The notes under the pieces were generated by a model. It saw only the letters and a list, made by a program, of their open reading frames with translations. It searched no databases and was not told the origin of the DNA. Below, one piece after another: positions 24,757-63,169 of a stretch of 64,000 nucleotides of DNA. Both the position numbers and the translations under genes were made by a program. Position 1 is the first letter of the stretch. Every line of letters begins with the position of its first letter. Origin of the DNA: Escherichia coli (GTDB taxonomy: Bacteria > Pseudomonadota > Gammaproteobacteria > Enterobacterales > Enterobacteriaceae); assembly GCA_002099625.1 (NCBI GenBank), contig GCA_002099625.1_4857.1; one strand, 5' to 3'.

Positions 24757-24780
24757 CACCTAGGTAATATATATCTGAAA
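24757..24780 (-). promoter_or_regulatory. class A phage promoter-like motif
   Basis: Minus-strand TTTCAGATATATATTACCTAGGTG, followed by hairpin GAGAGTT/AACTCTC and leader TAATCGAC. Confidence 0.6.
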
Positions 24781-24821: not shown

Positions 24822-24866
24822 CTGTAAAAAAGGCAATACCCTCTTACCCGAAGGTAAGAGGGGGTA
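24822..24866 (-). terminator. intrinsic terminator
   Basis: Stem accctcttacc/ggtaagagggggt with cgaagg loop, T-run on minus strand. Confidence 0.75.
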
Positions 24867-50520: not shown

Positions 50521-52083
50521 ATGAATAGTAAAATGATGTTGATAACCGCCTTAGCCGCACTGTATACAGAATCTATGCTGACGGACCCTAGCAAGGATCA
50601 TGATGTCATAAGAAAAGTTCTGATGCAGATCAAGCTTCCGGAATATGCGGAAGATGGCGAAGAGCGCTTTGCACTCATCGAGATCAAGGACATTATCACA
50701 TCTATCATAGACGGCGGCATGGAATACGACCACGCGAGCGTTATGAAGCGCTTGAAGCTGGCCACCACTCAAGTACGTCCTCTATACGATACGATTACCA
50801 AATTCCTCGAAGACGATTTGCCCGAGGAAGAAGACAAACGTACCGAGCATCTTAATCGACAACTGTCTCAATATTATTTCCAATTACGTCAATGTTTACA
50901 GAGCGTCGAACTCAAAACAAAAATGGGTCGCGCGTTCGGAGCATTGAATGGAACTGAGACACGTGTTGATCTGAACACCGCAGTGCTCGAACTCAAAGAG
51001 GCGCTATCTACGTTCGGTGAACGCTCTCATAATAAGATTCCATCACTGGTTGGTGAGCTGGTTACGGATAATCGTGCTCCGTTTGTTAAAGTGTTCGACT
51101 CGATTAACAAGAAAGCAGCAGGTAATGGTTTGCAGACGGGCTGGAAAGCCATTAACCAAATGCTCGGTTGTAACAAAGGGATTACCGAAGAACTGTGGCT
51201 AATGCCGGCGTTACCTTTTAACTGTAAGTCTTTGTTCAGTCTCTTACTGAGCTTGTCGATTCCTATCTTCAACACGCCTGAGAAAGTAATGGCGGATGTG
51301 AAGGGCACACTGCAACCAATTATTCTTGACTTGAGTTTAGAAAACGAACTCGACGTTAACTTAGCTTACGGCTATCAAGCACTGTACGGTCATTTTGAAG
51401 GACAAGTTCCACAGATGACCATTGCCCAAGATGCGACCGCTGAAGAGAAGTTAGCACACACAACAGCAATGTCTGATTACCTCTGTGGTAAGATTCGCGC
51501 AAACGGTTGGGACTACGTTTTCCAAAAGCACACCAACTCCGATTTTAAAGTGCACTACATCAACGACCTTATTCTCGACTTACGTCGTCGCGGTTATCAT
51601 GTTGTTGGCATTCGCGCAGACTACTTAGGCACAATCAGCAAAGCAGGACACGGCAACGGTATTGCCGGGAGTGATATCAAAGAAATTTATCGTATTGCTC
51701 GTAACATCCAAGTGGTACGCAACCGTGGGTTCTTAATTGCCCCACACCAGATTTCCCCAGAAGGTAAGCGCTTAAAAGCGTTAGACCCGGTAGGTTTCTG
51801 TAAGAACTTACCTGGTCGTGGTCTTTACGATAGTTGTTCGAGCCTTGATAACGAGGCCGATGGTGAAATGTATTTTAACAAGCGTGTGGTCAACGGCCAT
51901 AGCTTCTTAGAAGTTCAACGCGGTAAGCACCGCACCATTATCGATACTAAAGAATCTTATCACTACACAGTGATACCTTTCCAGGATGTTGGCATCCTGC
52001 CTTGGGATTGTGATAAAGAAGAAACCGTAACAGCGTCGTCTATCAACTTCTTCACCGGTGGAATGGGTGATGATTTGTTCTAA
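50521..52083 (+). CDS. hypothetical protein, plus-strand
   Basis: Continuous 520-aa plus ORF with SD AAGGA; minus frames fragmented. Confidence 0.55.
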   Translation: MNSKMMLITALAALYTESMLTDPSKDHDVIRKVLMQIKLPEYAEDGEERFALIEIKDIITSIIDGGMEYDHASVMKRLKLATTQVRPLYDTITKFLEDDLPEEEDKRTEHLNRQLSQYYFQLRQCLQSVELKTKMGRAFGALNGTETRVDLNTAVLELKEALSTFGERSHNKIPSLVGELVTDNRAPFVKVFDSINKKAAGNGLQTGWKAINQMLGCNKGITEELWLMPALPFNCKSLFSLLLSLSIPIFNTPEKVMADVKGTLQPIILDLSLENELDVNLAYGYQALYGHFEGQVPQMTIAQDATAEEKLAHTTAMSDYLCGKIRANGWDYVFQKHTNSDFKVHYINDLILDLRRRGYHVVGIRADYLGTISKAGHGNGIAGSDIKEIYRIARNIQVVRNRGFLIAPHQISPEGKRLKALDPVGFCKNLPGRGLYDSCSSLDNEADGEMYFNKRVVNGHSFLEVQRGKHRTIIDTKESYHYTVIPFQDVGILPWDCDKEETVTASSINFFTGGMGDDLF

Positions 52084-52216
52084 CGAACACTGGGGAGCTT
52101 AGGCTCCCCTACGGGCAGTTTATGCGTCCTGCCAAGATCAAAAAAAAATACGACGAACTATTTATATGCATGGAATTACCCGAGTGTTCCAGCACTCGGG
52201 TAAGAGTTATTTCATG

Positions 52217-52363
52217 TTAACTTTTGTTTAGTAGTATTTCACCTCCTAAACCCTTGATACGACGAACAGTGTTCTGCTTGGGCGCAGTCAACTGTTGTAC
52301 ACGTTGGTTGAATTGGGTTTGCTTAACGTAATAGTTAAGTATTTGCGAACGTAGTTGTTCCAT
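52217..52363 (-). CDS. micro-protein, paralog A (48 aa)
   Basis: ATG 52363 with SD AAGGAGG; ends IKGLGGEILLNKS; paralog of 52476..52622. Confidence 0.5.
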   Translation of the reverse strand: MEQLRSQILNYYVKQTQFNQRVQQLTAPKQNTVRRIKGLGGEILLNKS

Positions 52364-52379
52364 GTAGTGCCTCCTTAGG

Positions 52380-52400
52380 CAGGTTGTTAATATATCGCTG
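52380..52400 (-). promoter_or_regulatory. class A-like promoter variant
   Basis: Minus-strand CAGCGATATATTAACAACCTG shares the ATATATTA core; low confidence. Confidence 0.3.
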
Positions 52401-52439
52401 CGCTGTGGTGGTACACAATGCACCGATATACTGTCACGG

Positions 52440-52468
52440 GAGTTAAAAGGGGTGCTCGAACACCCCTG
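52440..52468 (-). terminator. intrinsic terminator
   Basis: Stem aggggtg/cacccct; T-run on minus strand; after stop of micro-ORF B. Confidence 0.6.
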
Positions 52469-52475
52469 GTTAGTG

Positions 52476-52622
52476 TTACTTCTTATTGAAGATGATGTCA
52501 CCTCCTAGTCCTTTAATGGTACGGGTGGAAGTCTGCGTTGGGCGGCTAACCTCTTGCAGACGTTGTTGAAAAGCGACTTGTTTCAGCTGTTGCTGACGCA
52601 GTTGTTGCATAAAGGTATTCAT
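52476..52622 (-). CDS. micro-protein, paralog B (48 aa)
   Basis: ATG 52622 with SD AGAGG; ends IKGLGGDIIFNKK; below the 60-aa cutoff of the ORF track. Confidence 0.5.
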   Translation of the reverse strand: MNTFMQQLRQQQLKQVAFQQRLQEVSRPTQTSTRTIKGLGGDIIFNKK

Positions 52623-52648
52623 GTTAACCTCTAAGTGGATGTGAATAA

Positions 52649-52690
52649 GCTCTCTCCTTCGGGAGAGAGCGCCTTTTATTTTCTTTTCGG
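52649..52690 (+). terminator. hairpin with plus-strand T-run
   Basis: Stem gctctctcc/ggagagagc with ttcg loop followed by ttttattttcttttc on plus strand; also lies in the 5' UTR of micro-ORF B. Confidence 0.4.
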
Positions 52691-52731
52691 AAAATAAATA
52701 TAAAACCCTCTTACCCGAAGGTAAGAGGGGT
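52690..52731 (-). terminator. intrinsic terminator
   Basis: Stem ccctcttac/gtaagaggg with ccgaagg loop; A-run on plus strand. Confidence 0.7.
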
Positions 52732-52735
52732 ACTA

Positions 52736-53596
52736 CTACGGTTTATAATCAACTTCGTTGATCTTGCCGCAAGCCGGACAAGCAATGTTCATTGTCTGCG
52801 AAGTATAGCGATGGGTTCTCGGTACTGTAGCGACATGGTTGCGGTTACAGCCGGAACACGTCCAGCCAACCACTGGTGCCTTCGATTGTTTCTGGGCAGG
52901 TGTGTCTTCTTTTAACAATGCGACTACCGCGTGAAATTTACGAAGCTCTGCGTTAACATGCGCTTCCCAGTCGGCGTCCAAACGCGCCGTGAACCAACGT
53001 TGAATCTTCTGGCCAAGTCCGTCTTGATTTTCTTCTTCATGGGACATCACAAACTTGAGATTTGCACGACCCCATTGCACGACGTTCTCTACTTTAATCC
53101 CGTCTACGGTGTCGCTGATTGGCGTATAGTTAAAAGTTGGATAGGTGAGATAACAAGCTTCAGCTGTTGCAAAGACAGTATTGCCTTCAAACAGTGCCAT
53201 GGCCTCATCGCCCTTAGCATCCTTCTGTGCGGCTTCCAATCGTGGGCAATGGAAACCTTCAAGTTGCTGGATTTTGGTCGTTAGCACATTGATACCCTGT
53301 AGCACGGCAATGCGCTTTTTGCTGTCTGTGATCGTCGCCATTACCTTGCACAACGCGCGCGAGATAGCGCTATACATTGACGTTTTGCGGTTTTCATCGA
53401 GGAAACGCTCTTGCTGCTCCAGGTCGTAAGAAGACAGGCCGTAGCTCTGCCCTTCGACCAACACGACATAAGTACGACGTTTGTCGCGGTCCAGCTGGAC
53501 AATGGCCGCATCGGTTAACGGATCGCTAGCCAATACTTCGTGGTTGGGAGGTAGGGGGAAATCCGAACTTTTGATAAAATCAGTAATGCTGTACAT
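52736..53596 (-). CDS. hypothetical protein with C-terminal zinc ribbon
   Basis: 286-aa ORF; C-terminal CSGCN...CPACGK. Confidence 0.55.
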   Translation of the reverse strand: MYSITDFIKSSDFPLPPNHEVLASDPLTDAAIVQLDRDKRRTYVVLVEGQSYGLSSYDLEQQERFLDENRKTSMYSAISRALCKVMATITDSKKRIAVLQGINVLTTKIQQLEGFHCPRLEAAQKDAKGDEAMALFEGNTVFATAEACYLTYPTFNYTPISDTVDGIKVENVVQWGRANLKFVMSHEEENQDGLGQKIQRWFTARLDADWEAHVNAELRKFHAVVALLKEDTPAQKQSKAPVVGWTCSGCNRNHVATVPRTHRYTSQTMNIACPACGKINEVDYKP

Positions 53597-54263: not shown

Positions 54264-54445
54264 TAGTAAATCTCCTGCTGCATTGGAAACACATTACCTG
54301 TCGGTGAGACGAGTAAGACTTGCGCGGTAACGTGAACAATTTCTTCTTCGTCCTGATGACGAACACCGTTAGTGAGATTATCCCACTCACGTTTAACACG
54401 AGGGTGAGATAAGAACTCGGCAAACTGCGTATCAGAAAAGTCCAT
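54263..54445 (-). CDS. small hypothetical protein
   Basis: Start ATG 54445 overlaps stop of upstream micro-ORF (TAATG coupling). Confidence 0.45.
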   Translation of the reverse strand: MDFSDTQFAEFLSHPRVKREWDNLTNGVRHQDEEEIVHVTAQVLLVSPTGNVFPMQQEIY

Positions 54446-54588
54446 TAGCCGCGACCTGTGCACATGGCAACAGAGTTACCGTTATCGATGCATTTGTTGT
54501 AATCTTGAGTTACAGTGATAGACAGTACCGCGAAAGCAACAACAGCAACGATTGCGAAGATGGCACGTTTATGGTTACGAGTTAACAT
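54445..54588 (-). CDS. small membrane protein (47 aa)
   Basis: MLTRNHKRAIFAIVAVVAFAVLSITV...; single TM; first ORF after class A promoter; not in ORF track (under 60 aa). Confidence 0.45.
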   Translation of the reverse strand: MLTRNHKRAIFAIVAVVAFAVLSITVTQDYNKCIDNGNSVAMCTGRG

Positions 54589-54640: not shown

Positions 54641-54664
54641 CACCTAGGTAATATATATCTGAAA
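54641..54664 (-). promoter_or_regulatory. class A phage promoter-like motif
   Basis: Minus-strand TTTCAGATATATATTACCTAGGTG followed by hairpin GATAG/CTATC and leader. Confidence 0.6.
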
Positions 54665-63145: not shown

Positions 63146-63169
63146 CACCTAGGTAATATATATCTGAAA
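63146..63169 (-). promoter_or_regulatory. class A phage promoter-like motif
   Basis: Minus-strand TTTCAGATATATATTACCTAGGTG followed by hairpin GAGCAAA/TTTGCT. Confidence 0.6.

Follow-up and report, generated by a model that had tools for sequence, protein, structure and literature searches.

Small phage proteins that regulate or inhibit cellular machinery include T7 Gp2, lambda Kil, lambda CIII, and arginine-rich-motif peptides such as lambda N. Also relevant are leader and arrest peptides (SecM, TnaC, and ErmCL) and Shine-Dalgarno (SD) elements that are internal or non-initiating, such as the frameshift stimulators of dnaX and prfB, the bypass element of T4 gene 60, and the STAB-SD of B. thuringiensis cryIIIA. 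We analyzed a 64,000-nucleotide stretch (hereafter the window) of contig GCA_002099625.1_4857.1, which is deposited as Escherichia coli and shows ~98.6% DNA identity to the Salmonella jumbo phage SPN3US (genus Seoulvirus). The window carries two tandem micro-genes, gp71 and gp72, which their substitution patterns mark as protein-coding and under purifying selection. We tentatively propose that they encode basic micro-proteins that would act in trans inside the infected cell.

The micro-proteins resemble T7 Gp2, lambda Kil, and CIII in their size, in their apparent absence from the virion, and in having what looks like an autonomous expression unit, and a basic helix rich in Gln and Arg is suggestive of the arginine-rich motifs with which peptides such as lambda N bind RNA. 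However, they have no similarity in sequence or fold to Gp2, Kil, CIII, or N, and they occupy a conserved, core-like locus rather than a variable early accessory region. With SecM, TnaC, and ErmCL they share a short open reading frame (ORF), conservation that peaks at the C-terminus, and a stop codon located 8–14 nt upstream of a stable 3′ hairpin, but neither a downstream gene nor a downstream ribosome-binding site (RBS) is present, and the whole peptide is conserved, including its N-terminal helix.

A further resemblance concerns an SD sequence embedded within the conserved C-terminal codons of both genes. Like the elements of dnaX, prfB, and gene 60 and the STAB-SD, this sequence has strong complementarity to the anti-SD without an obvious start codon, and here it is conserved at synonymous sites. 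Unlike in dnaX, prfB, and gene 60, there is no slippery site, alternative-frame extension, or landing codon, and the sequence is situated toward the 3′ end, not in the 5′ untranslated region (UTR). The gp71 and gp72 proteins of SPN3US and PHROG 18219 represent the same family as the window genes, with no difference between them.

Two tandem genes of a catalogued family

The minus strand of positions 51800–53000 was read and all ORFs of at least 25 amino acids were listed. Both micro-genes were recovered exactly at the coordinates, and with the translations, of an earlier prediction made from the letters of the window alone (hereafter the original prediction):

52476..52622, minus strand: gp71 coding sequence, 48 amino acids, homolog of SPN3US_0071 (ORF listing and homology)
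52217..52363, minus strand: gp72 coding sequence, 48 amino acids, 100% identical to SPN3US_0072 (ORF listing and homology)

The SPN3US counterparts (accessions YP_009153365 and YP_009153366) are annotated as hypothetical proteins and have the same positions and orientations as the window genes, and the window gp71 differs from SPN3US gp71 by only a few residues. The two proteins are 51% identical to each other over 47 positions, a likeness that is far above chance because the BLASTP E value is 3e-14, and both end in the proposed shared motif, (R)xIKGLGG(D/E)I..NK. Both also match the hidden Markov model (HMM) of PHROG 18219 over its full length (residues 1–48 against profile positions 1–48 of 48; E = 1.4e-25 for gp71 and 6.8e-27 for gp72), and the family is therefore PHROG 18219, which is catalogued without functional annotation. 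Because the genes are annotated and belong to a catalogued family, their existence was already known. New here are the demonstration of selection at the coding level, the conservation of the cassette, the recombinant allele found as a single copy, and the embedding of an SD sequence within the motif.

No third paralog was found in a six-frame motif scan of the window or in the loci fetched from relatives, including the 400-bp gap of locus L013. Neither protein scored above threshold in Pfam, and no family match above threshold was obtained in Pfam, PDB, or Rfam for the micro-genes or their products. Sub-threshold Rfam matches to mir-4679 fell on the terminator palindrome and were taken as chance. 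The searchable literature does not mention gp71 or gp72 of SPN3US, and its single match to “gp71” is a subunit of the phiKZ nonvirion RNA polymerase (nvRNAP). The micro-genes are flanked by gp70 and by a convergent DnaB-like helicase gene, gp73, which is followed by gp74 and by the major capsid protein gene gp75, both ~2 kb from the micro-genes.

Coding status and distribution

The homology search called for by the original prediction was conducted with tblastn and with profiles, and it recovered orthologs of 47–49 amino acids from all of the related phages examined, without any change in syntenic position. The relatives included the Seoulvirus phages SPAsTU and pEa_SNUABM_29, the Machinavirus phages Machina, Huxley, Parshik, pEa_SNUABM_6, 10, 42, and 43, and pSal-SNUABM-04, and additionally pEa_SNUABM_11 and several metagenomic contigs, making at least seven lineages overall. 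Synteny is constant, wherein a gp70-like gene is followed by the micro-gene and then by the convergent divDNAB helicase, gp74, and the major capsid protein gene.

The ATG, reading frame, and stop codon are kept in all copies, length changes involve whole codons, and the frame, length, and start and stop positions are preserved across ~50% nucleotide divergence. Where synonymous divergence (dS) is unsaturated, the ratio of nonsynonymous to synonymous divergence (dN/dS, Nei-Gojobori) is 0.08–0.35 (Huxley–Machina, 0.08; pSal04–pEa43, 0.09; pEa6–Machina, 0.11; gp72–SPAsTU, 0.35). Major lineages are separated by a dS that is above 1 or saturated and yet their proteins are still 35–55% identical, and synonymous codons vary freely at most of the conserved residues. 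By these measures gp71 and gp72 are protein-coding genes under purifying selection. The original prediction named conservation of nucleotides without conservation of the protein as the sign of a noncoding RNA, and this sign is absent here because dN/dS is low, indels are exclusively in frame, and synonymous sites are saturated between lineages. The tandem paralogous micro-genes that it described are genuinely protein-coding, and both have an SD and a 3′ hairpin of their own.

Among 5.8 billion proteins, a word-indexed search retrieved ~30 clusters, each drawn from these phages or from phage contigs within bacterial assemblies. When 1.84 billion representatives were searched exhaustively with an HMM, only three family clusters emerged, along with three multi-stretch matches that most likely reflect Gln-rich low-complexity sequence. 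Within these sequence collections, the family occurs solely in a clade of Enterobacterales jumbo phages with genomes of ~240–250 kb. The presence of the whole cassette at a fixed locus next to helicase and capsid genes in two phage genera makes the gene tractable for functional work.

Properties of the micro-proteins

Residues M1, Q20, R21, K37, G38, L39, G40, G41, I43, and K47 are invariant or nearly so, position 18 carries a conserved aromatic residue, and positions 22, 25, 36, 44, and 45 carry aliphatic residues. The C-terminal 15 residues constitute the most conserved part of the micro-protein. The 5.6-kDa product is strongly basic (isoelectric point 10.6–11.7; net charge approximately +5.5 to +6.6) and hydrophilic (grand average of hydropathy −0.76 to −1.01), with Gln and Asn together making up 19–29% of residues. 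A Gln-rich, helix-like N-terminus had been proposed, which agrees with a Gln/Asn content of 25% in this part and with an AlphaFold2 run on a 21-sequence alignment. The model places a helix at residues 2–26 (predicted local distance difference test score, pLDDT, of ~88), followed by a Pro-containing linker and a beta-hairpin (35–38/41–44) whose turn is at GLGG (pLDDT ~56).

No hydrophobic stretch that could form a transmembrane segment, as expected for a membrane micro-protein or type I toxin, was found in gp71 or gp72. A double-glycine leader of the bacteriocin type was also rejected, given that only 7 residues follow the GG and no C39-peptidase ABC transporter was seen among the flanking genes, for which the divergent DnaB helicase was the sole family matched in Pfam. 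Gel-based liquid chromatography–mass spectrometry (GeLC-MS) of SPN3US virions listed 83 proteins, including gp64, gp74, and gp75 but not gp71 or gp72 (Table S4, PMC5105663). Because the smallest protein in this table is 10.5 kDa (PMC5105663), the absence of a 5.6-kDa product is weak evidence, and it only mildly disfavors the guess in the original prediction that these could be small structural proteins.

A conserved expression cassette

In all three phage groups the same order of elements is observed: an upstream operon terminator, an AT box, a GC hairpin, TTAATCACAT or TTATTCACAT, an SD, the ORF, a second hairpin, and a run of T8–10. The corresponding elements of the window, with the gp71–gp72 spacer, are as follows:

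52706..52729, minus strand: gp70-operon terminator hairpin, a C-UUCG-G stem-loop with U-run (the generic terminator type of the phage)
52672..52705, minus strand: AT-rich box TTTTATATTTATTTTCCGAAAAGAAAATAAAAGG, almost unchanged across the Seoulvirus, Machinavirus, and pEa11-like loci
52649..52670, minus strand: covarying GC hairpin of 9 pairs, 4 with compensatory changes
52627..52632, minus strand: gp71 SD, AGAGGT, 4 nt to the ATG (from sequence)
52445..52467, minus strand: gp71 terminator hairpin, AGGGGTG-TTCGAG-CACCCCT (GTG-N6-CAC apex) plus UUUU, 8-bp stem, −15 kcal/mol
52391..52430, minus strand: imperfect 17-bp hairpin or palindrome in the gp71–gp72 spacer, overlapping a ATATATTA box at 52388–52395 (from sequence)
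52370..52377, minus strand: gp72 SD, TAAGGAGG, 6 nt to the ATG (from sequence)
52176..52203, minus strand: covarying 11-bp hairpin 3′ of gp72 with GTG-N6-CAC apex, 10 pairs, 7 compensatory, none broken

The claims that each ORF has its own SD and that a terminator separates the two ORFs are thus borne out. The AT box has the composition TTATTTATTTTC-GCAAA-GAAAATAAAAG. We infer from this architecture that the micro-gene needs either its own promoter within an interval of ~80 nt or read-through transcription, and the AT box would be the only place for such a promoter.

The GC hairpin differs in sequence between lineages while its pairing is kept. When read on the minus strand, it would be a stem-loop in the 5′ leader of gp71 mRNA. 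On the plus strand, the same positions (52649–52670) form a canonical UUCG-loop intrinsic terminator with a T-run extending to ~52683. The generic terminators of this phage have a 10- to 11-bp stem, a UUCG loop, and a U-run, and because the plus-strand hairpin is of this type, the AT box also provides the U-tracts for two back-to-back convergent terminators.

The gp71 3′ hairpin qualifies as an intrinsic terminator, and that of gp72 is only partly canonical because its T9 run (52140–52148) lies 27 nt downstream of the stem. Every ortholog, like gp71 and gp72, has the GTG-N6-CAC apex in its 3′ hairpin, with the rest of the stem covarying, and this apex is otherwise rare in the window. Because this constant apex differs from the generic C-UUCG-G terminators, it suggests that the micro-gene 3′ hairpins may be recognized in a sequence-specific manner.

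On the plus strand, the first canonical terminator past the helicase stop codon (52083) is that at 52649–52670, beyond both gp72 and gp71. In the interval 52084–52210, the hairpins located directly after the helicase gene (52092–52109 and 52114–52133) have no plus-strand T-run. Because the first canonical terminator lies beyond the micro-genes, helicase transcripts may run antisense through them, carrying UCACCUCCU, a mimic of the 16S rRNA tail.

A de novo word search returned the 17-nt motif TTTCAGATATATATTAC. Four exact copies of TTTCAGATATATATTAC(C/T)TAGGTGA occur on the minus strand of the window (63153–63169, 54648–54664, 24764–24780, and 2813–2829), and each is followed by a 5′-leader hairpin, a conserved AATCGAC(T/C)ATTA box, an SD of the sequence AAGGAG, and an ATG. 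This arrangement probably represents the phage’s own early promoter class, used by its virion RNA polymerase. The copy at 54648–54664 heads the gp66–gp70 block directly upstream of the micro-genes. The gp70 terminator and its flanks occur as identical 26-nt copies 28 kb apart (52705–52730 and 24838–24863). Because the second copy is directly upstream of one of the promoter-like motifs, terminator–promoter modules appear to be reused.

The 8-mer ATATATTA occurs five times in the window, comprising the four TTTCAGATATATATTAC copies and one site 24 nt upstream of the gp72 ATG. We do not claim the latter as a gp72 promoter because only the core is shared, it is mutated in SPLA5c, and it sits within a hairpin arm. 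Another candidate upstream of gp72, TATATTAAC, which resembles the core of phiKZ early promoters, was rejected because it is not enriched (14 matches versus 14.2 expected).

An SD sequence embedded in the conserved motif

In a feature missed by the original prediction, the codons for GLGG(D/E) spell A-GGA-GGT-GA, which is the full complement of the 16S rRNA 3′ tail, and each micro-gene carries the resulting 9-mer once:

52498..52506, minus strand: SD-like perfect 9-mer AGGAGGTGA in the GLGGD codons of gp71 (from sequence)
52239..52247, minus strand: SD-like perfect 9-mer AGGAGGTGA in the GLGGE codons of gp72 (from sequence)

These are the only two occurrences of AGGAGGTGA on either strand of the window, and none is present in 63.8 kb of long ORFs. 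The consensus A-GGR-GGU-GA pairs with 16S positions 1532–1540 to form a predicted duplex of −15 to −16.6 kcal/mol, and the sequence is always located 19 nt before the stop codon.

We compared codons among 15 family members from ~7 lineages for which dS exceeds 1. The motif Leu is invariably YTA and the second Gly invariably GGR. At the third Gly, a single sequence departs from GGT, namely the gp72 of MET_P1, which has GGC and a weaker predicted duplex of −13.6 kcal/mol. In the long ORFs of this phage, NTA accounts for 26% of Leu codons, and GGR and GGT account for 26% and 43% of Gly codons. The chance of the motif pattern under independence is ~1e-6 or lower for 5 independent lineages, a figure that ignores phylogeny. 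The A/G alternation retains 16S pairing through G-U wobble. In contrast, codons vary at four motif residues that are kept as amino acids (K, the first G, D/E, and I), with Lys encoded by both AAA and AAG and the first Gly by all four codons. The limits of the constraint coincide exactly with the limits of 16S complementarity. In pEa_SNUABM_10, the motif Lys is changed to Asn and yet TTAGGGGGTGA is kept.

There is no start codon at RBS distance from the embedded SD and no downstream gene. Several other possible functions were considered and rejected. A conserved RNA partner is not supported because the minimum free energy partners differ between lineages. Frameshifting of the dnaX or prfB type would require a slippery site, and none is conserved after the motif, within which both alternative frames stop. 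Bypass, reinitiation, or a downstream mini-ORF is likewise not conserved. A leader or arrest-peptide ORF lacks a downstream gene or RBS to act upon, and in single-copy phages the ORF is followed by the hairpin and then by the convergent helicase 3′ end. Candidate explanations for the element are capture of 30S or 70S ribosomes that would stabilize or boost a very short mRNA, a pause near termination, or coincidence with a rare-codon cluster. If functional, the embedded SD could reveal an RNA-level layer of translational control, and conservation of a motif in micro-ORFs can more generally reflect overlapping protein and nucleotide constraints.

Copy number and recombination between the paralogs

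The duplication noted in the original prediction is present in this phage but is not a trait of the family. Two copies are found only in SPN3US, Proteus phage 7, SPLA1a, SPLA3, SPLA5c, and MET_P1_082_240, and the other records have a single gene. In two-copy phages, gp72 is the more derived copy. The single gene of phage JN03 matches in two pieces: its upstream region and codons 1–41 are 98% identical to gp71, whereas the remainder of the gene, codon 42 through the stop, shares 96% identity with a gp72 allele, and its downstream region is 83–86% identical to that of gp72 versus 56% to that of gp71. Because the 5′ part matches gp71 and the 3′ part and downstream region match gp72, the JN03 gene is, judging from these alignments, a gp71(1–41)::gp72(42–48) fusion with the crossover inside the shared TAGGAGGTGA. 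The crossover sequence is the same as that of the embedded SD. SEGD1, the SPFM phages, EC001, and SaP7 show the same two-piece, single-copy match pattern.

Because most relatives have a single copy, including the JN03-type phages with the fusion, one copy evidently suffices, and the duplication is a lineage-specific copy-number variant. The two-copy, one-copy, and fusion alleles offer a natural redundancy experiment.

Several SPFM records (LR535901, LR535904–LR535908, LR535911, and LR535917) align with this locus in 10–15 short pieces and have spurious ORFs of 65–68 amino acids containing scrambled gp71 fragments (P0030–P0032). This observation suggests local assembly or sequence-quality problems in the genomes concerned.

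Possible functions of the micro-proteins

The explanation that we favor, although with somewhat less than even confidence, is that gp71 and gp72 each encode a translated, soluble, strongly basic helix-hairpin micro-protein that is not part of the virion and whose polyanionic target is reached in trans. Its cassette is self-contained, and the tandem arrangement is lineage-specific and dispensable. The protein would consist of an N-terminal amphipathic helix rich in Gln, Asn, and Arg, a short Pro linker, and a C-terminal beta-hairpin with the invariant GLGG at its turn. It would act inside the infected cell rather than as a virion component, by binding to nucleic acid or the ribosome or else to an acidic surface on a protein. 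We infer the intracellular action in trans and the nature of the target, wherein the basic charge argues for a polyanion rather than for an inhibitor of the DNA-mimic type. SPN3US-like and Machina-like jumbo phages keep the cassette at a single, unchanging position, and the duplication is a copy-number variant of certain lineages.

Several points weigh against this explanation. Translation and partner binding are predictions from sequence, the beta-hairpin is predicted with low confidence, and the negative virion mass spectrometry result is weak for so small a protein. No homolog with known function emerged from comparisons of sequence, profile, or fold. Furthermore, synonymous-site conservation of the embedded SD indicates a partial constraint at the RNA or DNA level, and therefore the protein may not be the whole story.

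Alternatively, the micro-protein could bind and inhibit a specific host protein, as suggested in the original prediction. We consider this unlikely, although the gene is small, clade-specific, apparently non-virion, and equipped with its own expression unit, and upstream of gp72 there is a ATATATTA box that matches the core of the promoter-like motif recurring at the head of gene blocks in the window. Copy-number variation and the faster evolution of gp72 would also fit an accessory or arms-race gene. However, the motif is nearly invariant across phages of Salmonella, E. coli, Proteus, and Erwinia, the fixed, core-like position by replication and capsid genes is more in keeping with a phage-internal role, no similarity to any known inhibitor is evident, and the extreme basic charge favors polyanion binding.

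An RNA-level or cis-acting role, in which translation of the short ORF and its embedded SD matter and the peptide is secondary, is improbable in our estimation. Such a role might involve 30S or 70S capture close to the 3′ end, to stabilize the mRNA or retain ribosomes, a peptide of the arrest type, or an antisense interaction with helicase transcripts that read through. In its favor, A-GGR-GGT-GA is kept at three synonymous sites across the ~7 lineages even though the NTA codons of Leu and the GGR codons of Gly each account for only about a quarter of their families, and the nucleotide core outlasts the Lys-to-Asn change in pEa_SNUABM_10. The uniqueness of the 9-mer to the micro-genes, its strong predicted duplex with the 16S tail, its constant spacing to the stop codon, and the position of the first canonical plus-strand terminator past the micro-genes all point the same way, and arrest peptides similarly have their greatest conservation at the C-terminus. 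Against such a role, the next gene is the convergent helicase and so there is no downstream gene to regulate, the N-terminal helix is also under purifying selection, and the four motif residues named above keep their amino acid identity despite changes of codon. Moreover, the SD has neither a start codon at RBS distance nor a conserved RNA partner, and MET_P1 gp72 provides one natural GGC exception. In nucleus-forming phages, transcription and translation are spatially separated, which argues against attenuation.

More doubtful still is the bolder proposal that the core of the family is an RNA element rather than, or besides, a peptide. The cassette would then be a new kind of ribosome-directed device, either a 3′-proximal 30S or 70S capture site that stabilizes or boosts a tiny mRNA or a basic micro-protein and its super-SD mRNA that together act on the ribosome during takeover by the jumbo phage. 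A device of this kind may be cross-regulated by the antisense helicase 3′ UTR with its 16S-tail mimic.

We regard it as very unlikely that the micro-protein is a minor head, inner-body, or decoration component or is otherwise involved in assembly. Basic micro-proteins can accompany packaged DNA, and the gene is near those for the major capsid protein and for the virion protein gp74. However, gp74 and gp75 were detected among the 83 virion proteins and the micro-proteins were not, and the micro-genes are transcribed with the non-virion gp66–gp70 block, convergent to the helicase gene, with gp70 itself described in the literature as essential and non-virion. Finally, a noncoding RNA with fortuitous ORFs would account for the structured, conserved flanking hairpins and for the nucleotide-level constraint on part of the ORF, but this explanation is largely refuted by the maintained frame, length, and start and stop positions, by indels in multiples of three and dN/dS values well below 1, by internal RNA structures predicted to differ between lineages, and by the lack of any Rfam match other than the sub-threshold chance match noted above.

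Neighboring genes

At its C-terminus, the gp70 homolog (52736–53596, minus strand) carries four Cys in a zinc-ribbon-like motif (WTCSGCN...IACPACGKIN). No Pfam family matches this protein, and PHROG 10180 matches it over residues 1–239 only. Another conserved micro-ORF on the minus strand (54445–54588) encodes the 47-amino-acid sequence MLTRNHKRAIFAIVAVVAFAVLSITVTQDYNKCIDNGNSVAMCTGRG, whose tail contains Cys and whose hydrophobic segment resembles a transmembrane helix. This protein belongs with PHROG 8574 by its match to that family, and Machinavirus phages have a 45-amino-acid ortholog (Machina gp80).

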